This document shows, one piece after another, positions 513 through 24,500 of a stretch of 64,000 bases of DNA. Location of the stretch: the IMG/VR virus record IMGVR_UViG_3300010365_001248, positions 32,001 to 96,000 of that record, one strand, 5' to 3'. Position 1 is the stretch's first letter, and the number at the start of each line of letters is the position of its first letter. Source of the DNA: a virus. Taxonomy: Duplodnaviria > Caudoviricetes. Under the pieces are notes generated by a model. It searched no databases. It was not told where the DNA came from and was given only the letters and a program-made list of their open reading frames with translations. A program made the position numbers and the translations under genes.

Positions 513-2528
513 ATCTAGAACAAGTAAAATCCATAACAAATAGAATTATGGATGTAAATCGAAAGTTAGCAGATTTAGGTGAACCAAAAATTCCTATTAA
601 TTTTATAGGTATGGCAGGTGTGGGTAAATGTGATTTGCCGTCTTATTGAGTAATTAATAAGATTATCATTGGGCAAAAACGGTGAAGACTGTGATGTTAA
701 TACCGTGGTAAGTTTTTTCATTACGAAAGGGAAAAAACCACCGTAACGCGTAGAAGGTGAATAAATATAATCCTTCCAAGAGTGTCCGACTCCTAATTTT
801 TAGGATGAATATGTACGCTGAGCTATAGAGAAAAAGAATCTATAGAAGTATAGATAAAAAGCTATACGATAACAAAACTGAAAACGAGCAGCCTAATGCA
901 AGTAGCTGAAGAAAGAGGTTGTCATATTGAAACAGTTGTCTTGTCGCAGCTTGAAGAGGTAGGTGATGAACTATAAATGTCACCTAAATTAAAAACTCTG
1001 TGAATCTGGGAAAATCATCGTTATTATATGACAACCCTAATCCAAGCCTTATAGAAATATATTGAAGGATCAACGACTAGAATTAGTAGCCTCAGCAAGT
1101 GGTGTTGGAGGTAAACATTCCACGAGTGCAGAGAATTTTCCTATATATACCAATATTTAGTGGAAAATTAAGAGATAGTCTGAACTATATATAATACATA
1201 AATTATAGAATTAAAGGATAAAGAGCCTTTAAGATAACACAATTGATTACAGGAATGCCAGTTAAATTTTATAAACTTATTGATCCTCAAGGACAAGAAG
1301 TTGAAATGGCAGAAAGTGTTGTTCCTACACTTTTAAATTCAGGATATACTATTTGTCCTAATTGCGAACCAGTTACTTCTTTTGCAAAACCAGCTTGGGT
1401 GCCAGAAGATCGAGATCAAGAGTTTATTTTACTACTTGATGATTTTACCCGTAAAAATTAATTATTAAAATTTAGGAAGCTGCGGGTGTAAAACTCTGTG
1501 AATCTGGGAAACCCTTTATAATAAAATAAAGGCAACCCTAATCCAAGCTTTGTAGAAATACACTGAAGGATCAACGACTAGATTTAGTAATCTGACCAGG
1601 TGGTGCTGAAGATGAAAAATCCACGAGTGCAGAGCAATTATTTAAACATACCAATGTTAAACGATAATTGGTGAGATAGTCTGAACAATACATATATCTA
1701 AAAGTATTGAATTAAAGGATAAAGAGCCTTTAAGATAACAATTTGTGCAATAAAACATTCCTTCAAGCAATTATGCAATTGTTGCAATTTGGTAGTTATG
1801 GTACTTGGAGATTGCCTAAATATACTACAATTCTACTTTCTTCTAATCCAGAAGATGGTATGTACGATGTAACTGAAATTGATCCAGCTTTAAGATCTAG
1901 AATGATGAATTTTGTTGTAGATTTTGATATTAAGTTATGGGCTAAATGGGCTGAATCTAAAAATAAAAATGGTCAACTAATTAATTTTGCTCTTTGGAAT
2001 CAAAAAATGTTCCAAACAGCTAATCATTCTATTAATGCTAGAAACTATTCTATGTTTATAGATGCATTGATGGGAATTAAATTGGACACTAAAAATATGC
2101 CTGAAATTATATTAATGGCACAAGGAATTTTTGGTGAAGAACTTTCTATTGCAGAAGATCTTAGAATGTTTATAGATCAGCAACTAGATAAATTGCCAAC
2201 TCCTAACGATGTCATTACTAAATCTTGGGATGAATTGGAACCAATGCTAACAGATATTCTTTATAAAAATGAAGGTTATCGTTCAGATATTGGTTTCCTA
2301 TTAACCGTTCGTTTTTCTAATTATCTTGAAGAATATTTCAAGAATAACAAAGAAAAGAAAAAAGGTGAAAAAATTGAAAAAAGATTAGTTGAGTTGTTAA
2401 CTGCTAAAAAACCTTTATTGCAAGAAAATGGTTTATTGGAAATTGTTAAAACTCTAATAACTAAGTTTGCAGCAAAATGTCCAACTTTAGTAGCAAATCC
2501 AATTATTGCTTCAAAATTATTAAATTAA
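509..2528 (+). CDS. MoxR-like AAA+ ATPase, split by 3 group I introns (exons 509-625, 881-967, 1246-1452, 1746-2528; about 397 aa)
   Basis: The spliced product restores Walker A GMAGVG|KT, LSQLEEVGD|ITGMP, Walker B LLLDDFTR|C, sensor SSNP and Arg finger DPALRSR. Confidence 0.88.
626..880 (+). mobile_element. group I intron (255 nt), variant P7 GCGTA/TACGC
   Basis: 5' exon ends GGT; P1 ggt|aaat pairs with atttgcc; 3' end GATAACAAAACTG; removal restores Walker A. Confidence 0.88.
968..1245 (+). mobile_element. group I intron (278 nt), canonical P7 GACTA/TAGTC
   Basis: P1 aggtgat pairs with gtcacct; R element TCAACGACTA; S element AGATAGTCT; terminal G; frame restored. Confidence 0.9.
1453..1745 (+). 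mobile_element. group I intron (293 nt), close paralogue of 968-1245
   Basis: P1 acccgt pairs with gcgggt; TCAACGACTA and AGATAGTCT; long identical blocks with the previous intron. Confidence 0.9.
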
Positions 2529-2530
2529 TT

Positions 2531-2869
2531 ATGAAACAATTAATTGAATTTATTAAAAACTTTTTTAGTACACCTGAAATTAAAGCTGATTATATTTTTC
2601 AAGTAGCTTTACACGGTGAACAATATATTGAGCTAGATGAAAATACTCGTATTAGAAAGTGTATTAAAAAAGCAATTGATTGGTCTTATAAAAAATCTTT
2701 ATGTGGAGAATGTCAATGTCTTGCAAAAATAGATCAAGATTTAATATCTAAAAAAGATATTATTATTGATATTCTTCAAAAAGATTACCATTTTGTAGTA
2801 AAAGATTTATCTGTATTAAATCCAAAATACAGTCATCTACTACTTTTAGATGTAGACCCATCTGAATAA
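2531..2869 (+). CDS. hypothetical protein
   Basis: ORF 2477..2869; more likely start is the ATG at 2531, just after the previous stop. Confidence 0.6.
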   Translation: MKQLIEFIKNFFSTPEIKADYIFQVALHGEQYIELDENTRIRKCIKKAIDWSYKKSLCGECQCLAKIDQDLISKKDIIIDILQKDYHFVVKDLSVLNPKYSHLLLLDVDPSE

Positions 2870-2946
2870 TATGGTTTATTTAATTATTTATATTTGTTTA
2901 ATTTTTGGTTTGCTTATTTATTTTAAGCAAACCGCTTTAATTTTTA

Positions 2947-3369
2947 ATGAAAACAATGAAAAATTCTAAAAAAATTATTATCTTTAAGCATTCTTCTTTA
3001 ACTGATTTTACAGGTGTTACACGTTATTTTTGTATTTGTGCTAGAGTACAATATGTATTTAAAGGTATTTCAACTATCACTTTTGGTTATTCTATTTGTA
3101 CTCCACCTGATGAATATAATCAGGAAACAGCAGAGAAAATTGCAAGAAAGAAAGTAGAATTTTCAAATAGACTAATTGCTTTTCCAGGTAAAATGATTAA
3201 TGATTCTGTATTAGAACAGATTCTAACTAATGAAATTGATTTCGTTAAAACTCATACCGGAGTTATTTTTAAAACTTATGCTACTGATGAACTTAAATAT
3301 ATTAAGTTACAGAAAGATATAAAAGGAGTTAAAAATGCAATTAATGAACTCAACACCACTAAAGGATAA
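2947..3369 (+). CDS. hypothetical phage protein
   Basis: 140 aa ORF in an operon; has a G.S.C.P.D.Y....A..IA pattern common in small phage proteins. Confidence 0.65.
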   Translation: MKTMKNSKKIIIFKHSSLTDFTGVTRYFCICARVQYVFKGISTITFGYSICTPPDEYNQETAEKIARKKVEFSNRLIAFPGKMINDSVLEQILTNEIDFVKTHTGVIFKTYATDELKYIKLQKDIKGVKNAINELNTTKG

Positions 3370-3517
3370 AAATAATATTATTTATAAATACCCCGAAAGA
3401 ACTTGTAAAAATTGTAAAAAATATCCTTGTTTTAAAGGATTTGATTTTATCAATTTAGATTTTGCTAAATATGGTTGTTTAAATTATGAAGCAGGATCTA
3501 AAAGAGTTTACAATTAA
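3335..3517 (+). CDS. small Cys-rich hypothetical protein (CxxC...C...C)
   Basis: YPERTCKNCKKYPCF...GC; overlaps both neighbours. Confidence 0.55.
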   Translation: MQLMNSTPLKDKNNIIYKYPERTCKNCKKYPCFKGFDFINLDFAKYGCLNYEAGSKRVYN

Positions 3518-3821
3518 AGCTAAATTATTAGCAGAAAAGAAAGATCTTTTTGGTTATACTCTTTATGTATTTCAAAATCTTGAAAATTATAATATTCATG
3601 AGAAATACATAACTCTCGTTAGATTTCCAAATTGGGAACAAAGCCCTTTTAATATAAATGAAGAGGGCTTTGTTCATTTTAAAATAGTAGAAGCTGGACA
3701 AGATGAATGGTATGATCCTAATTCTAAAAGATTTTATTATTATAATTATACTAATATGATTTTTTTACAGTTTATACCTTTAAAACCAACTACTGGAGAT
3801 CAGATATATATTTTAGATTAA
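3486..3821 (+). CDS. hypothetical protein
   Basis: 111 aa ORF in operon. Confidence 0.7.
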   Translation: MKQDLKEFTIKAKLLAEKKDLFGYTLYVFQNLENYNIHEKYITLVRFPNWEQSPFNINEEGFVHFKIVEAGQDEWYDPNSKRFYYYNYTNMIFLQFIPLKPTTGDQIYILD

Positions 3822-3831
3822 TATAATAAAT

Positions 3832-4686
3832 ATGACAGCAATTGCAGAAGCATTTAAAAAAGCTAATGAATCCAATTTAAACAAGTATGAATGGAGAACC
3901 TCTAAAGATGAGAATGGTGTATATAAAACTTATAAATTAATGGAATGTTCTTTTGAACAACTTCATAGTTTTTATAAACATTGTCAATCTATGCTAGAAA
4001 ATGAGGAATCTACACACTTAGGAAGAAGTGTTATTATGAATATGATTACTTCTCAAATTTCTAAAAGTTATGCTGAACTTGTAGTTAGAATGATGGTTGG
4101 AGTAGGTAAATCTTATAATACTCGATTGGAATTATATCAAGCTTTAAAACATTTTATAGAATTAAATCCTAATGTATTTGTTGATGCTGAAAGTAAAAAG
4201 AATTTTAGTATAGTAAATGCAATTTCTGGACTTGATTCTAAATTCACATCTGCTAATTTAGAAGATGTTATGAATGCTTGCCTATCTTCTTTAGGAAAAA
4301 TTCAATTAACTAAAATTTCTTTAAATTTTATTCTTTCTTTGGGAATTAATTTAAATAAAGAATCTCAAAAAGTAGTAGAATCTTGGATACGAACTAATAT
4401 TAATCTCCCTAAAGACACTAAACTAAAATTTAAAACAAATGGAATTACTAAAGAAGAACTCTATGATATTATCAAAATGAAAAGTGATTCTACTAATTTT
4501 GGTAAGTTTGTATTTGCTAAAGATTACAATGATTTATCATCAAGTCAACTTAATCTTTTAGTAACTAAATTATTACCAGCTCTTTATAATAAATGTGGTT
4601 ATCAGAAATTTCTTTGGGCAAAAAAGATGCAAGAAATTCAAGATGTCGGTTTAGCTAAGGGTTGGAATGTTGCAAATGAAATTTAA
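3832..4686 (+). CDS. hypothetical protein
   Basis: 284 aa ORF; TAATG overlap with the helicase start. Confidence 0.75.
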   Translation: MTAIAEAFKKANESNLNKYEWRTSKDENGVYKTYKLMECSFEQLHSFYKHCQSMLENEESTHLGRSVIMNMITSQISKSYAELVVRMMVGVGKSYNTRLELYQALKHFIELNPNVFVDAESKKNFSIVNAISGLDSKFTSANLEDVMNACLSSLGKIQLTKISLNFILSLGINLNKESQKVVESWIRTNINLPKDTKLKFKTNGITKEELYDIIKMKSDSTNFGKFVFAKDYNDLSSSQLNLLVTKLLPALYNKCGYQKFLWAKKMQEIQDVGLAKGWNVANEI

Positions 4687-6475
4687 TGACTAGGGATGAA
4701 CGTCAACAACTCGTAATTAAACACTGGATTGCTACAAAAGGAAAAGGAACTTGTGAACTTCCTACTGGGTTGTATTATTTTAAATATATGAAAAAATTTA
4801 TTGATTATAAAAATATAGTAATGAATATTCTAAAGAAAATGGATTAAATTTAATAAAATATCTTTATAATAATAGTTCTATCTACTTAGAAAGAAAATAT
4901 AATTTATTTAAATTTTTTCAAAAAGGCAGCCGTTCTGTAAAGGAATTTACAGAATTATTATCGGGCAATATCGGGGGAAAGCCTATATAGGAAAATCCCG
5001 AGATAAATTTAGAAATTAAAAAATCTAAATCATTGTACAGCGTAGAAGGTGAAACTTATGAAAAATAAATGTAAATATCAAATAAAATTAAAAGACTTTC
5101 CTTATTATTGTTGTAATGCACAAAAGTATTGTCCAGCAATAATATGTCCTTTAAATTATAAAGATTGTGAAGTTTATAAGAATATAATCCTTCCAAGAGT
5201 GTCCGATATCCCAACTGAAATAAGTGGATAAACAGGTACGCGGAGCTTATAAGTAATTATAAGAAGTATGGGATAAAAAGCCCATGCGGTAACAAAACTG
5301 TTGGTAAAACTAGAGTAGCTTTAAAAATAATTGCTTTATTACAAGCAAAAAAGCCTCTAATTTCAATTAAAATACTTGTTCCGACTAATACATTAAAACT
5401 TCAATGGGAAAAAGAAATAGAGGCTTTTAAATTAAAAAAAGATACTATTTCTGTTGAAGTTATGATGGGTTCTTCCCAAAAGCAATCTGAATGTGATTTA
5501 TTAATTTTAGATGAATGTCATCGTTGTCTTTCAGAACATTTATACGCAGCTTTTACTAATATTAAATTTAGATTTGTATTAGGATTAACTGCAACGCTTG
5601 AACGTCTAGATGGTAGACATTTATTAATAGATCAATATGCTCCAATTTGTGATAGTGTTACTATTCAAGAAGCCCTACAAGAAGGGTGGCTTGCTCCATA
5701 TAAAGAATATCTTGTATTAATTGATGTAGATGATATTCAAGTATTTAAAGATTTAAATAAACAATTTACTTCAGTATTTGAATTTTTTAATATGGATTTT
5801 AATTTAGCTATGTCATGTGTAGGTAAAAAAGGTTATTATAATCGTATAAAATTAAGAGATGAAATGCTGCCAAATAATGCTACTCAAAAACAAAAATCAG
5901 ATACTCTTAAACTGATTCAATTAAAAGTAGCTCAATTTATGAGAATTCTTCAAAAAAGAAAATCATTTATAGCAAATCATCCTAAAAAGATTGAAATAGC
6001 TAAACGAATAATAGCAGCACGTTCTAATAAAAAAATTATTACTTTTTGTAAAACAGTTAAAATGGCTGAAGCTATATCAGATAAATATGTTTATACAGGA
6101 GATAAAAGTGTCAAAAAGAATAAACAAATTTTAGAGGAATTTAATAAACAAACTTCTGGAGTATTATCTACAAGTAAAATGGCTCAAGAGGGGCTTGATT
6201 GTCCTGATTTATCTGTAGGTATTTGTTTAGATGTAGATTCAAGTAAAATTAAAGCTAAACAAATATTAGGAAGGGTAATTCGTAAATATAAAGACAAACA
6301 AGCTGAATTTTTTACTATAGTAATTAATAATTGTGTTGAAGTGCAATGGTGGCAAAAAAGTCACACAGGTGCTCCAAATACTATTAAAATTGATGAAGAA
6401 GGTTTAGATCAAGTTTTGAAAGGAGAAACTCCTAGAGAAATTAAAAATCTTCAAAATTATCAATTTAGATGGTGA
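4686..6475 (+). CDS. SF2 DNA helicase (DEAD/DEAH-like), split by 1 group I intron (exons 4686-4770, 5301-6475; about 419 aa)
   Basis: The spliced product gives Walker A PTGFGKT; also DECH, GLTAT, EGLDCP and QILGRVIR motifs. Confidence 0.9.
4771..5300 (+). mobile_element. group I intron (530 nt), variant P7, AT-rich L1 insert and internal Cys-rich ORF
   Basis: P1 ggt|tg pairs with cagcc near 4927; GCGTA/TACGC; 3' end GGTAACAAAACTG. Confidence 0.88.
5058..5231 (+). CDS. intron-embedded small Cys-rich ORF (57 aa from ATG 5058)
   Basis: MKNKCKYQ...YYCCNAQKYCPAIICPLNYKDCEVYK; six Cys, in a loop that is short in sibling introns. Confidence 0.45.
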   Translation: MKNKCKYQIKLKDFPYYCCNAQKYCPAIICPLNYKDCEVYKNIILPRVSDIPTEISG

Positions 6476-6538
6476 TTTGAAAAGTTTTAAATTAGTATTA
6501 TGTATTAAACCCTGAAAAGGGTAAAATGCATAAAAAGA

Positions 6539-7174
6539 ATGAAATTAATTCAATTCTTTTTATGTATGTTTATTAATTTAGAAACTGAACTCCTTTGCTA
6601 TAATCAATATAATCTATCTCCTAATGAATTGCTATTTCTTCGAATGTTACTTCTTTGTCAAACAGAAGATCCTGAAGAAAAGAAATATTTTATAACTTAT
6701 ATGCAATTACCTGAAAGTTGTAAAGGTAATATACGTGAAATGTTAGTTATCTTACAGGCTAAAGGTTATATTCTTAAAAATTATAAAATTCCTGAAAAAG
6801 GTCAACAATTTGATCCTGTAAATATTCCTTTTAATCAAAAAATGGTTAATAAACTTTATAAAGCTTCTTATCAAATGGGAAAAGAGCTTTATGATATTTA
6901 TCCATTGAGTTGTGTAGTAAATGAGTGTGAGTATAAATTAAAAAGAATTTCTAATAAATTTGATACTCTAGAAGATGCTTATCGTTATTATGGACAAGCA
7001 ATTCGTAATGATAATATGACTCATGAACAAATCATTAAATTAATTAAATGGGGTAAAGATAATGGGTATCAATTTACTACTTTAGGTGCATTTTTAGCAG
7101 ATCATGATTGGAATAATATATTGTCAATGCAAAAGGAAAGTATATTAAATAATTCTTATATGAAAATGGTGTAA
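6539..7174 (+). CDS. hypothetical protein upstream of DnaB (possible initiator/loader)
   Basis: 211 aa ORF (start may be 6566); function inferred only from position. Confidence 0.6.
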   Translation: MKLIQFFLCMFINLETELLCYNQYNLSPNELLFLRMLLLCQTEDPEEKKYFITYMQLPESCKGNIREMLVILQAKGYILKNYKIPEKGQQFDPVNIPFNQKMVNKLYKASYQMGKELYDIYPLSCVVNECEYKLKRISNKFDTLEDAYRYYGQAIRNDNMTHEQIIKLIKWGKDNGYQFTTLGAFLADHDWNNILSMQKESILNNSYMKMV

Positions 7175-7199
7175 TATGAGAATTTTTAATTAATTTTGT

Positions 7200-8904
7200 A
7201 TGATTTCTGATGAACTTTTAAAAGAAATAGATAGAGGTAGAGAGGGTTTAAATCAAGGTACTACAACTGGTCTAGATAAATTAGATGATTTAACTGGAGG
7301 AAATTTACCTAATAACTTTATTGTAATTTTAGCTCAAAGCGGAGTAGGTAGTGTCTTACATATAAAATGCCGTTCCTATAAAGGAATTTTAGGAATTATT
7401 ACAAACCAAAAACGGGGAACTAAGTAAGAAGAATCCCGTGGTAAATATAGAAATTAAAAAGTCTATATCACCGTAGAGCGTAGGAATTGAACCTATTAAT
7501 ATAGAATAAAATATTCCCAAGAGTGGTTTGCATCCCAACTGAAAGAAGTGGATGAATAGGTACGCCGAGCTGTATTGTAAAATACAGAAGTTAAGATAAA
7601 AAGCTTAACGATAACACAACTGAAATCTTCCTTAATGTTATATTCATATTTTTATAAAGCTTTAAGAACCCATGAAAATGATGATAACTATTTTTGTTAT
7701 TTGTTTAGTTTAGAAATGTCTGCTACAATGGTACTAGGTAAAGTAATTAGTACCTATCTTTATGAGGAATTTAATGTTAGACTTTCTATAAATGATATTT
7801 TTTCAAGAAAAAAAGATTATACTCTTTCTGACGAAAATTATAATTTAGTCCTTAAAGGTATTGAATGGATTAAAAAAATGGAATCTAAATTTATTATATT
7901 TGATAAATCTCTTAATGCAGAAATTCTTTATACTTTATTATTAAAAGAATTAGAAAAAAGAGGATCTTTTCAAGAAACTGAAAATAGAAAAATTTATATT
8001 CCAAATAATCCTAATTTACTTTTTAATGTAATAATAGATCATATTTCTTTAGTTATGCCTTCTAGAGGTAGAGATTTAAAAAGAGAAATAGATTTAATTA
8101 CAGCTTATTTAGTTACATTGAGAAATATGACTAAATTAAGTCCTATTATTGTACAACAAGTAAATAGAGAACAATCTACAATGGAGAGGCGTAAGCAAGG
8201 GTTGTCGGATAGGAGGGTCCCTTGGATTTTAAAAAACAAAAATCATTTTGTATCTTTAATTAAACCTTATATTATTCCATCCATGCTTTATAAAATTCAA
8301 TAAAAATGTCCGAATAAAATTCCGTTAAACGGAGAAACTCCTAACAAGGACAACTCCGTGCTAAATTTTGAAGAAATTCAAATAAATGCCTAAAGACTAG
8401 AGATGATGCTTAACAAGTAAAGTTGAAGCTATAAAATTCTCCACGAAAGCGGGACACTGTTTATAGTAATATTTGAGAAAATATGAAATAAATTAAAGAT
8501 ATAGTCTGATCTATATAGTAATATATAGAATTATAGGATAAAGAGCCTATAAGATAACAAAAATGGTACGCCAATCCGATGCAGCTGATTCTGCAGATCC
8601 TACAAAAGCAGCTGAAGTTGTTATAGCTGTATTTAGTCCTAAAAGAGAAAAATTAAATAACTATGTAGGTTATGATGTTTCTGTATTAGATGATAAATTA
8701 AGAGCTATTCAATTACTCAAAGGAAGATATGGTATTGCAGATGTTGCTATAGCTTGTTGTTTTTGGGGAGATATTAATTATTGGCGTGAATTGCCAAAAG
8801 CTGAACATATTCGAGATTATACTAATTATCTAGAACCAAATTTTATTCCTGAACCTATTGAAACTGAATCTATTAAAATTGATATAAATAATTTTACTTT
8901 ATGA
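7200..8904 (+). CDS. dnaB: DnaB-like replicative helicase, 2 group I introns (exons 7200-7349, 7623-8210, 8566-8904; about 358 aa)
   Basis: TTGLDKLDDLTGG, AQSGVG|KS, FSLEM, IIDHI, QQVNR and KGRYG motifs. Confidence 0.9.
7350..7622 (+). mobile_element. group I intron (273 nt), variant P7
   Basis: Follows GGT in Walker A; GCGTA/TACGC; ends ATAACACAACTG. Confidence 0.88.
8211..8565 (+). mobile_element. group I intron (355 nt), canonical P7
   Basis: P1 tcggat pairs with gtccga; GACTA and AAGATATAGTCT; ends ATAACAAAAATG. Confidence 0.87.
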
Positions 8905-9185: not shown

Positions 9186-11357
9186 TGGCAATTACACTAC
9201 CTAAAACAAAACTTCCTGCACTTACTCAAGATCCTAAAAATCTAATTATTTTCGGTTTGCCTAAGGTTACCAGCCGTGCCTAAAAGGGATTTTAGGTATT
9301 ATAACTGAGTAAAAACGGTGGATGCTAAAAATTTTTCTTTTTACTATACAAAAAGTTGGAAAAAAATTATAAACTTGAATAGATTTTATTAAAAATAATT
9401 TATTTTAAGTTTATGAAAATTAATCGTTTTAAATATTCATTAAAAGATATAAAAATATTTGCAGATTATTATAAAAATAATCATACTTTATTAGAAACTG
9501 CAAAATATTTTAATATTAATTATAAAACTATGATAAATAGTTTTATTAGATTAGGGTATTATAAACCTACTAGAAAACAATTAAATAGAAAATATACTAT
9601 TTTGCATGAAGATTATTTTAGTAAAATAGATTCTCATGAAAAAGCTTATTTCTTAGGATTATTAATGTCTGATGGTTATATAGCTACAGATACTTATAGT
9701 AAAATTATGGGAATTACTTTACAATTGCAAGATGAATATATTTTAGAATATTTAAAACAAGCTATTAATCCAAATTCTAAATTACATTATTATAAAAATT
9801 CTGTTAAATTTAGAATTAATAGTACTAAAATATACAATGATTTAAAAACTTTAAATTTTTCTGAATCTAAATCAAATAAAGAATTTCATATACCAAATAT
9901 AAATAAAGAATTTTATAATTCTTTTATAGCTGGTTATTTTGATGGAGATGGATGTATTACTTTAAAAAAATCAGGTTACACAGTATGTTCTATTATATCT
10001 AATTCTAAATTAATATTAGAAGATATTCAAAAAATATTAACTGATAATAATATTTTAACAACTTTAAGAATAGATAGACCTGCTAAAAATAATAGACAAG
10101 CTTTGTATATTTTAGCTATTAATAGATTAAAAGAACAAAAAAAATTTGGAGAATTTATTTATAAAAATACTCCTATTTATTTAATTAGAAAGAAAGAAAA
10201 ATTCATGCAAATACCGTGCTAAATCTATAAATTGCGAAAGGTTATAGATCAGTGTAACGCATAGAGAGTGAATAAATATAATCTCTCCACGAGTACTCGG
10301 TATCTAGAACAGATAAAAATATATGCTGAACTATGAAGAAATTCATAGAAATACAGATAAAAAACTGTATGATAACAAAATTGTGGCAAAACAACTGCAC
10401 TTTCTACACTAGAAAATAATTTAATTATTGATACAGAAAATGGATCAGATTATGTAGAAGCTTTAAAAGTTAAAGCAACTAATATTAAAGAATTGCAAGA
10501 AATTTGTAAAGCAATTAAAGAAGCAGGAAATCCTTATAAATTTATTACAATTGATACTGTTACGGCAATTGAAGAAATGGCAAAACCATTGGCAATCAAA
10601 TATTATAGAGATTCTCCAATGTTTTCTGAAAAATATGCTCAAGTTACTGAACCTCAAGCACTTCCAAATGGAAGCGGGTGGCAATGGTGGCGACAAGCCA
10701 TTGAAAAATTGATAGATATGGTAGCTCAATGTACACCTAATTTAATTATTTGTGGACATGTTAAAGATACTAAACTTGATGAAAATACCTCAGGTTCTGT
10801 AAAAGATCTTGATTTGGCAGGTAAAAAATAGTAAAGTATTTTGCCGTCCTTAAGAGTGATCTTAAGGATCATGACGGGGCAATATCGGTGAAGGCTAAAA
10901 GTTGGATTAAAGATAATATAAATATTAAATTTAAAACAACTCATGTTAATACCGAGATAATTAATGATTTAAAAAGTCATTAACATCGTAACGCATAGAA
11001 AGTGAACCTATATTATAGAATATAATCTTTCCACGAGTGTCCTGCTCTAAATGAAAATTTAGATGAAAATATATGCTGAACTTATAAGAAATTATAAGAA
11101 CTATGAGATAAAAAACTTATAGGGTAACAAAATTGAAAACTAAAAGAGTTCTTTCAGCTAAATCAGACGCTATCGCTTTTTGTTTCAGAGACGATGATGG
11201 AAATTTGTGTTTACAATTTGGTAGTAATGGTGAAATTTTAACAGGAGCTCGTCCTGCTCATCTTGCTGGTAAAACTATTGTAGTTGCTGAAAAGAATGAA
11301 GATGGTACATTTATTTCTCATTGGGAACGTATTTATCCATCTTTGAATGAGAAATGA
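9185..11357 (+). CDS. AAA_24 / Sak4-like ATPase, 2 group I introns (exons 9185-9267, 10384-10822, 11136-11357; about 247 aa)
   Basis: The spliced product gives FGLPKVGKTT, IDTENG, TIDTVT, GHVKD and DLAG|KTK. Confidence 0.88.
9268..10383 (+). mobile_element. group I intron (1116 nt) encoding a LAGLIDADG homing endonuclease
   Basis: P1 ggt|t pairs with agcc; P7 GCATA/TATGC; ends GATAACAAAATTG; contains the endonuclease ORF. Confidence 0.9.
9413..10222 (+). CDS. LAGLIDADG homing endonuclease (two-motif)
   Basis: AYFLGLLMSDG and FIAGYFDGDG motifs; C-terminal LIRKK. Confidence 0.92.
   Translation: MKINRFKYSLKDIKIFADYYKNNHTLLETAKYFNINYKTMINSFIRLGYYKPTRKQLNRKYTILHEDYFSKIDSHEKAYFLGLLMSDGYIATDTYSKIMGITLQLQDEYILEYLKQAINPNSKLHYYKNSVKFRINSTKIYNDLKTLNFSESKSNKEFHIPNINKEFYNSFIAGYFDGDGCITLKKSGYTVCSIISNSKLILEDIQKILTDNNILTTLRIDRPAKNNRQALYILAINRLKEQKKFGEFIYKNTPIYLIRKKEKFMQIPC
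10823..11135 (+). mobile_element. group I intron (313 nt), variant P7
   Basis: ggt|aaaa pairs with ttttgcc; GCATA/TATGC; ends GTAACAAAATTG. Confidence 0.88.
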
Positions 11358-11377
11358 TAATTTTTAATTTAAATTAA

Positions 11378-12697: not shown

Positions 12698-12699
12698 TA

Positions 12700-14060: not shown

Positions 14061-14088
14061 AAGGTCAGTCTTAAGACTGACCTTTTTT
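14061..14088 (+). terminator. rho-independent terminator
   Basis: Perfect hairpin AAGGTCAGTC-TTAA-GACTGACCTT followed by a T run. Confidence 0.85.
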
Positions 14089-14099
14089 ATTTTATATAA

Positions 14100-14943: not shown

Positions 14944-14998
14944 ATAAACTCATGAAAAAAGAAAAAATTAAAAATAAAATTTTAAAATTTTTAAATAT

Positions 14999-15499: not shown

Positions 15500-16194
15500 T
15501 TATTATTCCTGATATACACGGTAGAACTTTTTGGAAAAGTGCTATAGAACAAAAAGAAAAGAATGAGAAAATAATATTTTTAGGGGATTATTTAGATCAT
15601 TATGATTATGAAAAAAATTCAGAAAATGAATTAATTACTCCTGAAAAGGCTATAGAAAATTTTAAAGAAATTTTAAATTATAAAAAGAATAATAATAATG
15701 TAATTCTCTTACAAGGAAATCATGATTATATTCATTATAATTTAAATTCTTTTGATTACAGAAAATATTATAAATATGAAGAAGATATTAATATGCTTTT
15801 TAAAGATAATTTAAAATTATTTTCTATAGCTCATTATGAAGTGTTTAAAAATCAACCTTTTTTATTTACTCATGCTGGAGTAATGCAAAAATGGTTAAAT
15901 AGGGTTAATCAAAAATTTTCAACTATTGAAAATTTAGTACATTGGCTAAATACTAACCCTTGGGCGGCTTTACGAATGTGTGGACCTGATAGAGGAGGTT
16001 TTGATCCTGTAGGTAGTTGTTTATGGGTAACTGTAACTGAATTTGATACTACTAATTATGAATTACCTAATATTTATCAAATTTTTGGACACACACAACT
16101 ACGTTCTGGTTTTATAGGTCCATATCATGCAGATTTGGATTGTCGTAAAGCGTTTAAATTAAATGAAGATACTTTAGAAATTTCTCCTTTATGA
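15496..16194 (+). CDS. calcineurin-like metallophosphoesterase
   Basis: DIHG, GDYLD, GNHD, HAG and GHT motifs. Confidence 0.9.
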   Translation: MIIIPDIHGRTFWKSAIEQKEKNEKIIFLGDYLDHYDYEKNSENELITPEKAIENFKEILNYKKNNNNVILLQGNHDYIHYNLNSFDYRKYYKYEEDINMLFKDNLKLFSIAHYEVFKNQPFLFTHAGVMQKWLNRVNQKFSTIENLVHWLNTNPWAALRMCGPDRGGFDPVGSCLWVTVTEFDTTNYELPNIYQIFGHTQLRSGFIGPYHADLDCRKAFKLNEDTLEISPL

Positions 16195-17479
16195 AATTAG
16201 ATGATATTAAATTAATTCCTTTAATGGATACTTTAAGATTACAAAAAATTTCAGATGAAGTTTATTTTTCTGAAAAATATTCATCTTATATTAGTAATTC
16301 TCGTTTAGGATTACTAAATCCATTACAGGATGGGACTCCTGAAAAATTTTTTCAAGGATTTGTAAATCAGGGATATAACCCTTCTTTCGAGTTAGGTAGA
16401 TGAAAATTTTTATAGTATAACTGCCGTCTTTATGAGTAATTATAAAGATTATAACAGGGCAATATCGGTGAATTCTGAAATTGAAAATACCGAGATAACT
16501 TTTGGAATAGCGAAAGGTTCAAAAGCATCGTAGAGCATAGGAAATGAATAAATATAATTTTCCCAAGAGTGTCCTGCTCCTTATATATTAAGGATGAAAA
16601 TATATGCCGAACTATAAAGAATAACAATTTATAGAAATATAGATAAAAAGCTATATGATAACAAAATTGAGTAGAACCCATGAATTAATACTCCAGCCTG
16701 AATACTTTGAATTGGCTCCTGATTTAATGCGACCAAGTGCTAAATTAGGAGCTATTGCGGATAAATTATATCCCTATTTTATTAAAAATACTATAACAGA
16801 TGATCTAGTAACAAAATTTTGTTTGGAAATAGATTATTATGTTAATCAATTAACTCCTAATAGAATTCAAAGTATTAAAGATACTTGTAATGAGTATTGG
16901 AAAAGAAGACAACAGTATGAAGCTTCTCATGAAACATCTAAAATAATTCAATATTGTGATGCTAAATTGTTAAGTACTGTACAAAGTTGTGTTGGTAATT
17001 TAAATAATCATCCACAAGTTAAATCTTTATTACACCCTGAAGGTATACTAGAAACTCCAATATCTGAATGTGAACAAGCCATTCTTTTGGATATAAAAGC
17101 AGAATTACCTAATGGAAAAAATATTATACTAAAACTAAAAGCAAAACTAGATAATTATACTATAGATAAAGAAGCTAATATAGTTACTGTTAATGATGTT
17201 AAAACTTATAGAACTGATTTAATTATGAACTGTGAAGCTTTTCATTATCATCGCGAGATAGGGTTGTATCTCTATTTATTATCAAAATGTTGTGAAAAAT
17301 TTTATAATATGAAAGATTTTACAATGAAAGGTAATTATCTAGGTGTTCAAACTCAATTTCCTTTTAGAGCTTGTGTTTTACCTGTAAAACAACAAGATTT
17401 TAAAAAAGGATTAATTGAAATGGATAAATTATTAAAATATGCTGCTTATTTAATAGGATATAAAAATTATAAATTCTAA
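16191..17479 (+). CDS. PD-(D/E)XK exonuclease (RecE/ExoVIII-like), 1 group I intron (exons 16191-16397, 16670-17479; about 338 aa)
   Basis: ISNSRL, FELG|SRTHELILQP, KAKLD...NDVKT...YHREIGLY. Confidence 0.82.
16398..16669 (+). mobile_element. group I intron (272 nt), variant P7
   Basis: ggt|ag pairs with ctgcc; GCATA/TATGC; ends GATAACAAAATTG. Confidence 0.88.
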
Positions 17480-17813
17480 TGTCACTAACTAGTTCAATTT
17501 TAATTAGTTGCTTTTTAACTATACTATGTATTATTTTAATTGAAAGAAAAAATTAATTTTTCTTTTAAATATATTAAAATTTTTTAATACTTTTGTATTC
17601 TATGAATCCACAAATGGCTTATTCTATTGTACAATTTATCCATAAAAATTTAGAAAAAGATATTCAATTATCAGTAGAAGATACTGCTAGTTTAATTTCT
17701 AAACAATTTAATTTAAAATATGAAGAATCCTATAAAATAGCTTCAGATTTATTTTATTTTGTTAATTCTGATTTTTTAATGAATTTATTTAAATTTAAAT
17801 TAAATATTTTAAA

Positions 17814-18395
17814 ATGAGTAGTTACACTTTTGTTGATTTTTGTTACAAAGAAAAAACTATTAAATCTTTAATAGATTTTTGTACTTCTGCCTCAAGAGAA
17901 CTTGATTTACCAGGTACTGGTACAAATAGAATTAATTATTTTCTTGAACATGATCATAAATTTAAAGATGAAGTTTTTAAATCTATGATTGATAATGGTT
18001 TAGATCCCCTTAAAGATAATAGTATTTATTATATTTGGAGCCATTCTAAATTTAATTTAGTAGAAAGATTTGGAGAAAAAGCTCATTGGGCTCCTTTTAC
18101 AAAAGATTTACTAGATTATGCAATAAATCATTATAAAGAAAATGTTAATGAGGCTAAAAAAGCTATTAAAGATAATTTAGCAATTAACCAATATCTTTCA
18201 AAAATTCAGGCTTCTACAAAGGAAGCTGTAATAGAAATAGTTGAACAAATACAATCTAATGAATCTTCTAATGATTATTGGAAAGATGAATTAAAAATAG
18301 CTAAATATAATCTAAAGCGATTTAAACGTATTAAATTTTGGTATTATTTAACTAAATTTATACCTAAATGTCAACTATTGTATTATCGGGATTAA
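17814..18395 (+). CDS. hypothetical protein
   Basis: 193 aa ORF. Confidence 0.7.
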   Translation: MSSYTFVDFCYKEKTIKSLIDFCTSASRELDLPGTGTNRINYFLEHDHKFKDEVFKSMIDNGLDPLKDNSIYYIWSHSKFNLVERFGEKAHWAPFTKDLLDYAINHYKENVNEAKKAIKDNLAINQYLSKIQASTKEAVIEIVEQIQSNESSNDYWKDELKIAKYNLKRFKRIKFWYYLTKFIPKCQLLYYRD

Positions 18396-18411
18396 AAAAG
18401 AAAATACTTTT

Positions 18412-18445
18412 AGCAGGCTTTACTTTTATAGTAAGCCTGTTTTTA
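18412..18445 (+). terminator. rho-independent terminator
   Basis: GCAGGCTT(T)AC...GTAAGCCTGT hairpin followed by a T run. Confidence 0.75.
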
Positions 18446-18561
18446 TTTTTAATATATTTATATTATAAATGTGGAAGAATTATTACTTATAAGTTTTTTT
18501 CTTGGATTACTTCTGATAAGTATTTAAGGTTTAAATAAACTAATTAATAAAATACGAAAAA

Positions 18562-19053
18562 ATGGGCACTAATTTTTATAGAGTAAAAAAATATGATTCT
18601 TTTAATAATGAATTAGCTCATTATTATATTTCTGTTGGAAAATTATTAGGAGAAGATTCTTTAGAAAGTTTAATAAATGATTTAAAGAATCCAATTCATA
18701 TTTGTAAAATTTCAGCAGGTTGGCAAGTTTTATTTGATCATAATAATGGTGAATATTATAATCTTTCTAAAAAAAGTTTAAGTAAATTTCTAAAAAAAGA
18801 AGGTTATAATATAATAGATGAATATGGACAAATATATTCTTCAAAAGCTTTTTGGCAATTAGTTTCTTCACATAATAAAAATGAGCATAATAATTTTTAT
18901 GGAGAAATTTATGCTAAAGAAGTAAAAGATACAAACTATTATGCAACTGAATCAGAAAAAGAACGAATTCAAACTTTATGTGGAATTACGCCTATTTATG
19001 CTGATTTTCAATCTAATGGTTTAAGATGGTCAGTAAATACTAATTTTTGTTAA
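18562..19053 (+). CDS. hypothetical phage protein
   Basis: MGTNFY...IHICKISAGW...DEYG pattern. Confidence 0.75.
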   Translation: MGTNFYRVKKYDSFNNELAHYYISVGKLLGEDSLESLINDLKNPIHICKISAGWQVLFDHNNGEYYNLSKKSLSKFLKKEGYNIIDEYGQIYSSKAFWQLVSSHNKNEHNNFYGEIYAKEVKDTNYYATESEKERIQTLCGITPIYADFQSNGLRWSVNTNFC

Positions 19054-19359
19054 ATGATTGTATTACACAGTGTTAGTTTAGTAGCTTTAGCTGCAATGTT
19101 AATTTATGTTATTTGCTTTTTCTGTAAATATAGATTTATTCCACAAAGTTTATCTGTAACAGCAGAAAGGTCAGGTAGATATAGATGGTGGCAAGTTACT
19201 ATCTGTACTGTAATGGGTTGGTTAAGTTATTACTTACCAACTTGTTATCCTTTTGCTATTTATGGAGCTTTACCTCTTTTAGGAGCTGCTGGTGTAGCTG
19301 GATTAGCTTTAGCTGGTTATTATTCTTATTCACCTGGAATAGAAACTAAAAGGGAATAG
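19054..19359 (+). CDS. membrane protein, possibly truncated, ends at TAG
   Basis: About 3 hydrophobic segments; IPQSLSVT motif. Confidence 0.6.
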   Translation: MIVLHSVSLVALAAMLIYVICFFCKYRFIPQSLSVTAERSGRYRWWQVTICTVMGWLSYYLPTCYPFAIYGALPLLGAAGVAGLALAGYYSYSPGIETKRE

Positions 19360-19401
19360 TTGGTTATTATATTATAATAAATTTTATAGGAGTTCTATAA
19401 A

Positions 19402-19707
19402 TTGGATATTCGTGATTTGTATATAGGACACATGTCTTCTTCTGAAGATTGGTATCAATTTATTAATTTACTTTGTAATTTAACTAAATATTTATCTGAA
19501 CAAAAGAAGAAGAAACTTTCTTGCTCTGAAGTTTGGGAGGCAATATTGAAAAAATTACCTCCTAAAGATCAATGGGCAATAGATTTAGGTAAATTGGCTG
19601 ATATTATTTATATGCATTCAGATTTATTTGATAATTATGGATTTAAACCATCTGAATATTCAAGCCAATTATTAAAAATCTTTAATACAAAACTTGTACC
19701 ATTTTGA
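19402..19707 (+). CDS. hypothetical protein
   Basis: 101 aa ORF with TTG start. Confidence 0.6.
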   Translation: MDIRDLYIGHMSSSEDWYQFINLLCNLTKYLSEQKKKKLSCSEVWEAILKKLPPKDQWAIDLGKLADIIYMHSDLFDNYGFKPSEYSSQLLKIFNTKLVPF

Positions 19708-20243
19708 AACATATAGAAACTCAAATAGTGCGAGGTATTACTGTAAAAGACGCAGTTAAAATTTTGCCTTTTAAAGTCATCAAATGTATTGATGCAGGAC
19801 AATTTTTCCGTAAACTAGATAAAGAAGGAATAAAATATTCTAATAAAAAACAAAGAGAATTTGTTTGTGAAGAATTTTTAAAATACCATAAAGCTTGGAA
19901 ACCTGGTTATGTAGGTTATATTACACATAGATGGAGAACACTTTCTTGTAGATGTAAAAGCCAATCTATAGTAACTTATAATAAAAATACCAAGCATAAA
20001 TTAGAAAACGGTTATATTGTCTATAATCAAAATAATCAAATAGTAGAATTTATATACGATATTAAATTAAGTGATTTAATTTCATATTTGAGAAAAAAAT
20101 TAAAAGTAGATACTCTTTCTACTTATAAAGTTATGAAAATTAAAACACGCGATAGAGAAACTCCTACACTTTCATTTTCTAGAAAAAATATAAATGAAGA
20201 TAAATTAGGAGAATACGATATTTTCTATTGTATTGATGATTAA
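19704..20243 (+). CDS. hypothetical protein
   Basis: 179 aa ORF, coupled to neighbours. Confidence 0.65.
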   Translation: MKHIETQIVRGITVKDAVKILPFKVIKCIDAGQFFRKLDKEGIKYSNKKQREFVCEEFLKYHKAWKPGYVGYITHRWRTLSCRCKSQSIVTYNKNTKHKLENGYIVYNQNNQIVEFIYDIKLSDLISYLRKKLKVDTLSTYKVMKIKTRDRETPTLSFSRKNINEDKLGEYDIFYCIDD

Positions 20244-20829
20244 TAGCAAAATTTATCAAACTTTAATTAAACCTTGGATAAAAGAAAAAGATGTAGAACA
20301 ATTATTTACTGATTTATATAATAATTGGAAAAATACTTTAGCTACTAAAGATCGCATTCAAAATAAATTTATTTCAGATGGTATAATTAAAGTTTATAAA
20401 GATGATTCTTTTACAAAACTTGATTATTGGATTTTACAAGAATGTAAACTCAGTACTTTTTTAGGAGATAAAGAAAAAATAGCAGCACAGTTTTTACAAT
20501 CTTTAATTTATATTAGTTTTTCTTTATATGATATTTCTTATGATTTACCTGGAGATAAATGTAAAGGTATTGTTTTAAATTCTAAATATTTTTTTGGATA
20601 CATAGATTTAAAAGATATTAATTTATCTTCTTGGGAACCTTTATGGGATAAATATAGAAAAATTGTAAGACCTTGTGATGCTTTTAAGCATTCTGAATTA
20701 TTAAATTGGGCTAAACAAAATTTAAAATTTACTAAATATTTTGATATAGAACAATTTAAAACTATCGAAGATTCAGAAAATACAGGATTATTAACCAATA
20801 TAAATAATATAAGATATGAAATTGCTTGA
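20233..20829 (+). CDS. possible PD-(D/E)XK restriction-endonuclease-like protein
   Basis: SDGII...LQECK...QFLQSLIY arrangement. Confidence 0.45.
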   Translation: MMINSKIYQTLIKPWIKEKDVEQLFTDLYNNWKNTLATKDRIQNKFISDGIIKVYKDDSFTKLDYWILQECKLSTFLGDKEKIAAQFLQSLIYISFSLYDISYDLPGDKCKGIVLNSKYFFGYIDLKDINLSSWEPLWDKYRKIVRPCDAFKHSELLNWAKQNLKFTKYFDIEQFKTIEDSENTGLLTNINNIRYEIA

Positions 20830-21514
20830 TTTATATAAGGGTGCTACAGTTATTAACAAAAAATTAACCATTTCTCCTAAAAAATGTATAGCTCCTTTTA
20901 TAAAACAGTTTAAAGATTATAAAACTAAAATTAGTGTATTTGCATTATCTAATCAAGAAATACTTGAAAATAATATAACAAAGAAAATATATTCAGATGT
21001 ATTAATACAAGTAATTTTACCTAATATATCTTTAGCTTCTTATAAAATGATGATATGTTTTACATATAAAATAGGTTTTGGAGTAAAAATTTATAAATGT
21101 TGGTATGATATTGAAAATCAATCATATTTAGTAAATACTTCTAAAGATATTTATATGTATAATTTTGATAATATTGACTATTCTAAAGTTGCTACGTTAA
21201 TTAATGAAGATATACCTATTATTGATGAATCTAAATCTTTTAATACAGAAGATTTAAAGAAAATAATGGGTAGTTGGTCAATAGATTGTTCTCAATTAAC
21301 TTTAGCTATTAGTAAAGATAAAGTTAAATTAGCCGAAAATCTTCCTATTCGATGTTTTAAAAGAATTCAAAAACATTATTTACTTGATACTATTTCTATT
21401 AAAGAAATTAGACAAGATTTTAGTTTTCTTTTAATTGAAGATATGAAGAAAGATTTATATAATATATATGAGAAAAGTTTTCTCATCAATACTTTATTAA
21501 ATGAAAATTGTTAA
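20816..21514 (+). CDS. hypothetical protein
   Basis: 232 aa ORF. Confidence 0.65.
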   Translation: MKLLDLYKGATVINKKLTISPKKCIAPFIKQFKDYKTKISVFALSNQEILENNITKKIYSDVLIQVILPNISLASYKMMICFTYKIGFGVKIYKCWYDIENQSYLVNTSKDIYMYNFDNIDYSKVATLINEDIPIIDESKSFNTEDLKKIMGSWSIDCSQLTLAISKDKVKLAENLPIRCFKRIQKHYLLDTISIKEIRQDFSFLLIEDMKKDLYNIYEKSFLINTLLNENC

Positions 21515-24500
21515 AACTGTTATAAATAAAAAGAGAGAAGAAAAAATATTTGATATAAATAAAATTCATATAGCTATTCGTAAAAGTGCTGATAGAATTT
21601 TAGTTACTCTAAATGATTCAGATTGTATTAAAATTTCAGATGAAGTTATTAATATGATTGATACTGAAAAAATAGAAGTTTCTAAATTGCATAATATAGT
21701 TGAACAAGCTCTTGAAAAAACTGGTTTTAATAAAGTAGCAGATTCTTATAGACAATATCGAAATTATAAATTAGATCTCCAAAAAACAAAAGAAACGGCT
21801 AATAATGATATTCAAGCTACTTTTATGAGTATTATTAATGCTGTTAATAATGATATTACTAGAGAAAATGCAAATATGAATTCAGATTCTCCTGCAGGTA
21901 TGATGATGAAATTTGCAAGTGAATCAACTAAACCTTTTGTAAGTAAATATCTTTTGTCTGAAGATGTTTTACTTGCAGAATCTTTAAATTATTTACATAT
22001 TCATGATAAAGATTACTATCCAACTAAAAGTTTGACTTGTATTCAGCACCCTTTAGATAGAATTCTTGAAAAAGGATTTAAAGCGGGGCATGGAGAAGCT
22101 AGAGGAGCTAAAAGAATTGAAACTGCTAGTATTTTAGCAGCTATTTCAATGGAAACTGTACAAAATGAAATGCATAAATAATACTGTGCATACTATTAGA
22201 AATAATAGGTAAAAATAAAAATAACGTGAACTTGTTTATCAGCAAGGTGTGAAAGAAACCTTTAGGGTTATATAGGAAATGATATATTTATTCTTTTGCT
22301 AACAGGGGAAGACACGTCCAAGTTTATCCTGTGCCAAGTACTAGTTACCATAAAAGTATTAATAAAAACTAGTAACTAGTAAAGGTCAAGAGACTATCGA
22401 AAAGTTATATTTTGCATAAGAAAATAAACACTTAGTAGAGTAGGGTAGAGATTGATACTATCCGAAGTGCGTTACAACTTAACATTTGAAGGTGAAGTTG
22501 ATGATATAGTCCGTCCTAAATTTATATTTAGGAAGGGTGGACAAGCAATTCCAGCTTTTGATTTTTATATGGCACCTTATGTAAGAAAAACATTTAATGA
22601 AGAAATTCTCAAAATTAAAAATTTTATGTTTGATTCAAATATTAATTGGGAGAATTTAATGAATATTAAATTGAAAGATTATATAAAGAAGCCTTTAACT
22701 GATTGTAAAGATTTGTCAGAAAAAATCATACAACAAGCTATAAATAATACAGTAGATAGAGTTCATCAAGCTATGGAATCTTTTATTCATAATATGAATT
22801 CTATTCATTCTAGAGGAGGTAAAATATGATTGCCTCCCAAATATAGTAATATATTTGTAAAAAATCCCGTAAAATCGGTGAAGTCTAAAAATATTAGGAT
22901 TCCAATAATATTCAAGATAATACCGAGGTAAGTTCTAAGATTGCGAAAGGCTTGGAAACACCGTAGAGCATAGTGGGTGAATAAATATAATCCCGCCAAG
23001 AGTATGGGACCCCAAATATATTTGGGTGAAAATGTATGCCGAACTATAAAGAAATTTATAGAAATAAAGGATAAAAAACCTTTATGATAACAAAATTGAA
23101 TCAAGTTGTATTTAGTAGTATTAATTATGGTACTGATACTTCAGCTGAAGGTAGGTGTGTAATTAGAGAACTATTAATATCTACGGAACAAGGAGTAGGA
23201 AATAATGCTACAGCTATTTTTCCGATACAAATTTGGAAAACAAAAGAAGGTGTATCAATATTACCTACTGATCCTAATTATGATTTATATAAATTCGCTT
23301 GTAAAGTTAGTGCACGCAGATTTTTTCCAAATTTTTTAAATCTAGATGCTACTTTTAACAAAGATGATGCTTGGGATATTAATGATCCTAAACGTTATGA
23401 ACATGAAGTAGCTGCAATGGGTAAGTGAAAATGCAGCCCATTTAAAACCTTTTGAACCGTGCTAACGGGTGTGGAATAAACGATTTAGTTTAGATTAATA
23501 GTCTATTAATTATTCTGCTAACTGCTAGGTCCAATAATAGCAGTTCTAAAATTATTGGATGAGGCAGTGCCAAATCGCAAAATGCGAAAGTGTGAATCGA
23601 CTATCCCTGATGAGTGTAAGGGAGTAGAATTGGAGATAAGCACCAATTCGAAGCGGAAGGCTCTAGAAATAGAGAACATATAGTCAGTACTAATGGTGAC
23701 ATTAGATTAATACGTGTAGAACCAGAGTTTATGAAAATGCTTTTGGACCTAAAACTTCAATAGGTAGAGGTAATATTAGTTTTTCTACTATGAATTTAGT
23801 TAAATTAGCTATTGAGGTTTCAATTCAAGATGAATTTTTATATAAAGAAAATAATAATTGGAAATTTAATGAAAATAAAAATTCAATTGAAGATAAAAAT
23901 AGAAGGCTAGAAGCATTTTTAATTAAATTATCAAATTTAGTAACTATTACTACTAAACAATTACATCAACGTTTTGAATTTCAAAAAACTGCTTTGAAAA
24001 AACAATTTCCTTTATTAATGCAAGGACTTTGGAATGGTTCTGAATCTTTAAAAGATACAGATACTATCGAATCAGTTATTAATTCAGGAACCCTCGGTGT
24101 GGGCTTTATAGGTTTGGCTGAAACTTTGGTAGCTTTAACTGGAAAACATCATGGAGAATCTGAAGAAAGTCAAAAGTTTGGTTTAACTATAATTAAAAGT
24201 ATTAAAGATCAATGCGTTGAAGCTAGAGAAAAATATAAGCATAATTATGCTTGTTTAGCTACTCCAGCTGAAGGTTTATCTGGTAAATTTACTAAAATAG
24301 ATAAAAAAGAATTTGGAATTATTCCTGGAGTTATTGACAAAGAATATTATACTAATTCTAATCATGTTCCTGTAGAATATAAATGTAGTATTGAGCACAA
24401 ATTTAAAATCGAAGGACCTTATCATGAATTAATTACAGCTGGTCACATCGGATATTGTGAGATTGATGGAGATTTAACTAAAAATCCAGAAGCTATTATG

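Follow-up and report, generated by a model that had tools for sequence, protein, structure and literature searches.

Seven introns recur in a stretch of 64,000 nucleotides of viral DNA (Duplodnaviria; Caudoviricetes), positions 32,001 to 96,000 of the IMG/VR virus record IMGVR_UViG_3300010365_001248, and every one of them lies directly after a GGT. How did one kind of intron come to occupy so many sites of a single phage? The whole stretch is referred to below as the window; its source record is a virus of 163.9 kb, estimated to be 94% complete, with a G + C content of about 25%. An earlier note on the window had described the seven as a subfamily with a non-canonical P7 pairing and a short GCC guide, inserted into unrelated genes, and had favoured reverse splicing or ectopic transposition over classical homing as the means of their spread. 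Judged by a covariation-supported fold, exact junctions and splice signals, the seven elements can be identified with near certainty as group I introns that form a single variant lineage resembling the introns of Staphylococcus phage Twort.

Fold, P7 and splice sites of the introns

All seven introns were found on the plus strand at the starts given in the earlier note, by which they are named here. Intron i626 (626-880; 255 nt, no open reading frame, ORF) lies in an ATPase gene (PHROG 1297) and splits the Walker A motif as GMAGVG|KTSS, and i4771 (4771-5300; 530 nt) splits motif I of a superfamily 2 (SF2) helicase gene in phase 1 (PTG|FGKT). Intron i7350 (7350-7622; 273 nt, no ORF) splits the Walker A motif of a DnaB-like helicase gene (GVG|KSS). 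The gene of an AAA_24 ATPase holds two introns: i9268 (9268-10383; 1116 nt) splits its Walker A motif in phase 2 with the GGT out of frame (GLPKV|GKTT), and i10823 (10823-11135; 313 nt, no ORF) is located at DLAG|KTKRV, which is not a P-loop, where the DNA reads GGT|AAAAC as it does at i626. The remaining two are i16398 (16398-16669; 272 nt, no ORF), at FELG|SRTHE in a conserved gene of unknown function, and i22821 (22821-23098; 278 nt, no ORF), at SRGG|NQVVF in the anaerobic ribonucleotide reductase gene nrdD.

The fold was built from an alignment of the five short members and comprises P1, P2, P3, P4, P5, P6/6a, a hairpin between P7 and P3′, P8, P9 and P9.1. Both the P3/P7 pseudoknot and the P4-P6 core of group I introns are present with covariation support. 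With the P7 pseudoknot included, 95.9% of 365 cells were paired and compensatory changes were found in 46 of 73 pairs; none of 500 shuffles matched the score of the fold, and slid registers also fell far below it. The hairpin between P7 and P3′ covaries and is found in all copies (5 pairs, 100% paired), and an inner second hairpin at this position is limited to long variants, namely i7350, i10823 and the two terminase copies described below.

The 5′ strand of P7 reads GCGTA and pairs with TACGC in i626 (748-752 with 814-818), i4771 (5040-5044 with 5237-5241) and i7350 (7478-7482 with 7561-7565), and reads GCATA and pairs with TATGC in i9268 (10259-10263 with 10322-10326), i10823 (10993-10997 with 11072-11076), i16398 (16535-16539 with 16603-16607) and i22821 (22968-22972 with 23035-23039). 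The order of elements is a closing pair, a bulged base, and then G-C, C-G, R-Y, U-A and A-U pairs. The covariation of P7 reported earlier was confirmed: pairing was 100% in the 5-sequence as well as in a 14-sequence alignment, with covariation at the third pair (R-Y) and at the closing pair. Among 86 distinct family sequences, the 5′ strand was GCATA in 55 and GCGTA in 28, and its complement was always kept. The guanosine-binding G-C pair was invariant (86/86), and the bulged base before it was C in 55 and A in 31.

Searching the rest of the genome with the family profile revealed two more copies outside the window, both on the minus strand in the terminase large-subunit gene. The first has P7 GCGUA, follows GGT GGT| and carries the guide GCC. 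The second has P7 GCAUA, follows TCGAT| with the guide GUCG and an 8-bp P10, and splits the terminase Walker A motif as KARSI|GFSE. An in-frame stop codon was observed at genome positions 150719-150721 (minus strand, locus L127), in the terminase exon between these two introns, and similar in-frame stops occur in genes of the relatives L122 and L095; they are consistent with stop-codon recoding in these phages.

The splice signals agree with the fold. Upstream GGT and a GCC guide, as claimed in the earlier note, were found at all seven window introns, the guide lying at 637-639 in i626, 4929-4931 in i4771, 7369-7371 in i7350, 9273-9275 in i9268, 10843-10845 in i10823 and 16423-16425 in i16398, and forming part of GCCTCC from 22832 in i22821. 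Genome-wide, both features are present in 8 of 9 copies, the exception in each case being the terminase copy that follows GAT. The pairing of exon and guide spans 3 bp in six window copies and 6 bp in i22821, and across the nine copies P1 consists of 3-6 exon pairs and 1-4 intron pairs. A U.G wobble between the exon U and a guide G was found at the 5′ splice site in 9/9 copies, and a terminal G is present at the 3′ splice site of every copy. A site-specific P10, formed by bases 5′ of the guide with the 3′ exon, measures 3-8 bp in 7/9 copies and 1 bp in i4771 and i7350; among the seven window introns, a possible P10 of 3-5 bp was found in five. The 3′ motif RTAACAMAAYTG has 8 matches on the plus strand of the window and none on the minus strand, with 0.26 expected. 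Seven of them end the seven introns, as had been noted, and the eighth ends an intron with a canonical P7 at 968-1245. It was also observed that the guide region GCCGU (637-641) is complementary to the 5′ strand of P4, ACGGU (705-709), and that equivalent positions of other copies are likewise complementary; the guide and P4 might conceivably form a competing pairing, which could be a further reason why the guide is conserved.

The junctions are exact, and uninterrupted homologues or the coordinates of the NRDD profile match them. A related phage with 69% protein identity (L122) has an uninterrupted SGAGKSS at the i7350 site and FGLPKCGKTT at the i9268 site. The i10823 site is read through without an intron as DLMGKL in L122 and as DLAGKL in L123, and at the i16398 site 20 of 20 relatives read LG|SAVHE. 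In nrdD, the match of the upstream exon of i22821 to the Pfam NRDD profile stops at 154 and that of the downstream exon resumes at 155.

The intron family in other phages

BLASTN with i16398 matched 45 GenBank phage records, spanning crAss-like, Lak, Clostridioides, Bacillus and Staphylococcus phages, and every match that was read has P7 GCGTA or GCATA. Family introns were located in the ATPase gene of crAss-like cr6_1 (before K-T), in the tape-measure gene of Clostridium phage phiCD211 and in the RecD-like helicase gene of Bacillus phage PJN02 (before K-S); further matches include Lak-A1 and the terminase of Staphylococcus phage SA2. A scan of IMG/VR with a pattern made of the 3′ strand of the variant P7, the 5′ strand being left free, returned at least 105 loci, almost all of which match the family profile. 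The introns are thus members of an extensive intron family of phages, most of it unannotated, and are not peculiar to this genome.

This family is invisible to RF00028, the only Rfam group I model. None of the seven introns was found with it over positions 1-42000 of the window, even at E values up to 10, and at the gathering score it found 0 of 20 relatives from other phages, whereas R1, a covariance model of the family's 3′ half, found 20/20. The tally of 0/27 copies refers to the seven window copies and the 20 relatives, with the terminase copies set aside. The Rfam group I seed had only one IA2 sequence, with P7 omitted from the structure, according to GISSD (PMC2238919), and a recent survey found that the IA2 introns of phages are a heterogeneous set which Rfam and GISSD represent poorly (PMC11878797). 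With R1, family members scored 119-140 bits (i626, 139.9), and the low score of i4771 (79.5 bits) is due to an insert in its P7.1 loop. Canonical-P7 introns of the window scored 90 bits in one case (31242-31382) and 29-51 bits in the others, the Twort introns 36-42 bits, and the terminase intron of Lactobacillus phage LL-H 30 bits. The LL-H intron was considered as a family member and rejected, its P7 being canonical and the profile giving no match.

Genes split by the family tend to be annotated as fragments, as with the ATPase of cr6_1 and the tape-measure gene of phiCD211. In the latter (LN681537.2; locus L010), a family intron at 401-681 lies directly upstream of an annotated Intron_gpI at 705-970, both between coding sequences named 'Minor tail protein' and 'Tail tape measure protein'. 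Probably the two coding sequences are parts of a single tape-measure gene, interrupted by a tandem pair of introns with only one member annotated.

Introns with a canonical P7 (GACTA/TAGTC) are also found in the window. Four without an ORF are located at 968-1245, 1453-1745, about 8300-8565 and about 23429-23720 (the 5′ ends of the last two are not fixed), in the ATPase, DnaB-like helicase and nrdD genes, with 6-bp guides and the same 3′ tail as the family. The first two, on the plus strand, share the ATPase gene with i626: that at 968-1245 follows GGTGAT with the guide GTCACC (R1, 51 bits), and that at 1453-1745 follows ACCCGT with the guide GCGGGT (R1, 45 bits). The closest canonical relative of the family in the window is the plus-strand intron at 31112-31379 (RF00028, 79.5 bits; R1, 90.1 bits over 31242-31382). 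RF00028 scored above threshold only once in the window, at 31112-31343, and three weaker matches fall within 30627-32384; the region 30627-32420, downstream of the ORF 29304-30545, appears as one gene broken by four RF00028-type introns (79.5, 39.2, 38.6 and 30.7 bits). Directly upstream of the nrdD exon that precedes i22821 is a non-coding stretch of 270 nt (22181-22452), which matches neither the family nor Rfam and could be another divergent intron or a leader.

Target sites and the route of spread

The nine copies of this genome occupy nine non-homologous sites in seven genes. The earlier note had called the host genes unrelated, and they are indeed different genes, except that two introns share the AAA_24 gene; the sites, however, are analogous, since 4 of the 7 window introns lie in the Walker A codons of four different P-loop proteins. 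With the terminase included, Walker A codons are split in five different nucleoside triphosphatases (NTPases) of this genome. The same bias is seen family-wide: 17 of 93 distinct 3′ exon contexts (18%) begin at or within the GK[ST] of Walker A, against 1.5% for positions picked at random and 1.6% for those that follow any GGT in the same loci; relative to GGT sites at large, this is an enrichment of Walker A sites by about 12-fold. The guide itself is nearly constant. At 28 distinct aligned sites in relatives it was GCC in 21, GGC in 4, GCU in 2 and GUC in 1, and a cruder count gave GCC in about 28 of 44; in relatives with a compact P1 the exon triplet is the complement of the guide, mostly GGT. 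These guides were taken from compact P1 hairpins and alignment columns, as automatic calls of the 5′ site mis-called two known sites. Target choice involves more than GGT, and an RNA guide of 3 nt would not by itself lead one to expect the Walker A excess. In this family it is one RNA lineage, and not only a protein, that is tied to Walker A through a fixed GCC/GGU pairing. Literature searches on this P7 variant, and on group I families linked to Walker A, found nothing specific, and no paper was found that reports an intron lineage tied to Walker A by a fixed guide pairing.

Intron-less orthologous sites were found at all four sites tested (i7350, i9268, i10823 and i16398). Introns i7350, i9268 and i10823 are all absent from 4/4 sampled relatives (35-69% protein identity), and half of the distinct empty i16398 sites retain GGT|AGTGC. 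For the exons of the ATPase (i626) and SF2 helicase (i4771) genes, searches found no relatives, so that the four sites tested do not include these two. From the non-homologous sites and the empty orthologous sites it follows that moves to new sites must have happened, constrained to GGU.

Core relatedness in the family as a whole follows the insertion site: identity averages 87.3% for pairs that share a site and 66.5% for pairs that do not. Such a pattern is what site-specific homing or vertical descent would leave behind. The copies of this genome behave otherwise. Their cores are 54-77% identical to one another, each has a relative outside the genome at 71-82% that occupies a different site, and their few same-site relatives are only 66-72% identical. 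A recent intragenomic burst was considered and rejected, because pairs within the genome average 68.6%, which equals the family background of 66.5% (standard deviation 5.7). Elsewhere, a 94.8-kb IMG/VR contig (L043) carries two family introns at 3325-3570 and 3684-3940, about 110 nt apart in one gene and 88% identical. With the guides GGG and GGC, they are the one pair at different sites among those seen that is clearly of recent origin, and here the guide changed with the site.

Endonuclease genes and remnants occur in the family. Intron i9268 encodes an intact LAGLIDADG homing endonuclease of 269 aa in its P5 loop (9413-10222, plus strand; Pfam LAGLIDADG_3, E 1e-15), and i4771 retains in its P1 loop the vestige of an endonuclease C-terminus with the YLERKY motif, which also ends the P1-loop endonuclease ORFs of relatives. 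Endonuclease ORFs are located in the P1 loop in L095 and cr6_1. In L095, a 168-kb relative, the i626 site is also occupied (SLPGIG|KTSL) by an intron with a helix-turn-helix (HTH)-LAGLIDADG ORF in that loop, the core being only 66% identical to i626. A 60-aa Cys-rich ORF without a Pfam match was also noticed in the P7.1 loop of i4771 (5049-5231), where group I introns do not usually carry cargo.

Taken together, we hold with moderate confidence that the introns are a Twort-like variant lineage with a near-fixed GCC guide, spread by endonuclease homing and rare ectopic jumps. For the route of mobility we infer that LAGLIDADG endonucleases encoded in the P1 or P5 loop would move the lineage, mostly into the same site of homologous genes. 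Since the guide is retained, a rare jump to a new site would survive only next to an exon GGU able to form P1, and such jumps may be favoured at DNA similar to the home site, for which GGT|AAA(A/T)C in a glycine-rich nucleotide-binding loop is typical. Once the intron had moved, the guide would adapt in its 5′ part so that P10 can form with the new 3′ exon. Most copies in this phage would then have lost the endonuclease gene, and would persist because they are spliced out of essential replication, nucleotide-metabolism and packaging genes.

Several observations weigh against this account. No endonuclease gene or trace of one was found in 7 of the 9 genome copies. The tree of 182 core columns is mostly unresolved and a monophyletic origin of the nine copies is compatible with the approximately unbiased (AU) test (p 0.39), so an old radiation inside this phage lineage is possible. 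The Walker A excess could reflect survival in conserved motifs instead of targeting, and the present data do not separate selection after insertion from targeting. Splicing of the introns and cleavage by the endonuclease are predictions from the DNA sequence. Finally, insertion points are shifted within one motif in different phages. In AAA_24 Walker A they are FG|KPKAGKSS (L113), PKAG|KST (L089) and PKV|GKTT (here, out of frame), and in the terminase GG|TGGD here and TG|GD in L018 and L040; all of these three AAA_24 and two terminase positions follow GGT. Such shifts are not explained by ordinary homing, and RNA-guided insertion fits them at least as well.

The strongest rival, which we consider unlikely, is accordingly reverse splicing, in which excised intron RNA would enter any accessible GGU under the guidance of GCC and become fixed by DNA copying and recombination. 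This mechanism has been put forward to explain ectopic moves as well as group I introns that lack an ORF (PMC2504315), and it would suit a 3-nt guide that stays constant over many unrelated sites, the two out-of-frame GGT sites (i4771 in phase 1, i9268 in phase 2), insertion points displaced by 4-15 nt but always after GGT, and the prevalence of ORF-less copies here. Against it, no RVT_1 reverse transcriptase was found in the 164-kb phage genome, a search that did not extend to host enzymes; the 12-fold Walker A excess exceeds what GGT alone would give, endonuclease genes and remnants occur in the family, same-site similarity dominates family-wide, and the most similar different-site pair, that of L043, has unlike guides. 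The non-homologous sites and the short guide that the earlier note had drawn on, like the empty orthologous sites, thus stand as evidence of spread, with nothing in them specific to reverse splicing, and the note's preference for it over classical homing is not supported, in view of the endonuclease genes, the Walker A excess and the contrast between same-site and different-site pairs.

A stronger form of this rival, in which the lineage is a GGU-seeking RNA element that needs no endonuclease and colonises glycine codons in nucleotide-binding loops through reverse splicing, seems to us rather less credible. If true, it would explain ORF-less copies at shifted, even out-of-frame, GGT positions of the same motif. 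A constant guide over dozens of unrelated sites, combined with the Walker A bias, makes the family a system in which RNA-guided and endonuclease-guided site choice could be separated, which is an open question for ORF-less group I introns.

It is improbable that there was no mobility on the relevant time scale, that is, that the introns are old and vertically inherited, that relatives lost their copies, and that the guide is conserved only through shared ancestry and because a helix of 3 bp needs two G-C pairs. The saturated divergence within the genome (54-77%), the monophyly of the nine copies that was not rejected and the many copies without an endonuclease gene would all fit. Many precise losses would be needed, however, to leave 20/20 relatives without i16398 and 4/4 without the helicase and AAA_24 introns, and at least 93 distinct family sites in very different phages, as well as the intact endonuclease gene in i9268, also speak against it. 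We therefore retain homing with rare jumps as the preferred account.

Comparison with known group I introns

The introns of Twort, located in orf142 and nrdE, belong to subgroup IA2, and the structure of a Twort ribozyme has been solved. In the Michel-Westhof classification, IA2 introns have one or more extra pairings (P7.1/P7.2) between P7 and P3′. Twort introns share with the family the order of helices, a P2 loop of AGUAAU type and a hairpin between P7 and P3′; a common order of P7 3′ strand, UGAAC, P9, GAAG, P9.1 and the tail GUAACAUAAUUG with a terminal G is found in the three Twort introns and in the family alike. They differ in having P7 GACUA/UAGUC and other guides (GUGC), and the nhmmer profile of the family does not find them at E values up to 1. 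The family would thus be a distinct branch of Twort-like (IA2-type) phage introns, its members forming a separate cluster because they score 119-140 bits with R1 against 36-42 bits for Twort. The 3′ tail was tried as a marker of the subfamily and rejected, as Twort introns and the canonical siblings carry it too, and it appears to be a trait of the wider Twort-like group.

The P7 change can be placed on the Tetrahymena ribozyme, in which the bound guanosine forms a triple with G264-C311, sandwiched by the triples of C262-G312, A265-U310 and C266-G309 (PMC9943679). The closing pair, bulge and G-C pair of the family correspond to C262-G312, A263 and G264-C311, whereas the layers A265-U310 and C266-G309 are C-G and G-C/A-U in the family. 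The change is thus confined to two pairs next to the guanosine-binding pair, with compensation. According to published mutagenesis, the sequence of P7 is critical at G264:C311 alone, as long as pairing is maintained (PMC2860135). We expect splicing to depend on guanosine in the ordinary way, because the G-C pair, the position of the bulge and the terminal G are kept and only compensated layers change. That the altered P7 marks a distinct ribozyme class with another cofactor or chemistry, as the words non-canonical P7 might suggest, is highly improbable: both of the above layers are replaced, and the J6/7 base two positions ahead of the closing pair is U in the family and C in the canonical siblings, but the guanosine-binding pair never varies, nor do the terminal G and the presence of a bulge ahead of that pair, the other P7 pairs are not sequence-critical by the mutagenesis cited, and a canonical-P7 sibling still scores 90 bits with the family model. 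The family provides 80-odd natural sequences in which two sandwich layers of the guanosine site are swapped with compensation.

In the behaviour of site and guide, the family can be likened to TMP-IVS1 and TMP-IVS2, IA2 introns of tape-measure genes in prophages of the Bacillus cereus group (PMC2504315), a likeness that concerns site and guide and leaves the P7 type aside. Those introns are related, occupy different sites and have a conserved core with a site-adapted P1 and guide; there the guide changed with the site, whereas in the present family the 3-nt guide is mostly constant. At the level of the genome, the nearest parallel is the Zeta group of crAss-like phages (PMC7886860), with genomes of 145-192 kb, low G + C content, many introns and inteins, and introns in core genes. 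The present 164-kb record, from a gut crAss-like phage, fits this group in size, low G + C content and intron load. The Zeta-group introns were found via endonuclease protein domains only, whereas 7 of the 9 copies here are without an ORF and the seven of the window are invisible to Rfam. The family introns thus belong to the additional, unknown gene fragmentation described for Zeta crAss-like phages (PMC7886860), and explain part of it.

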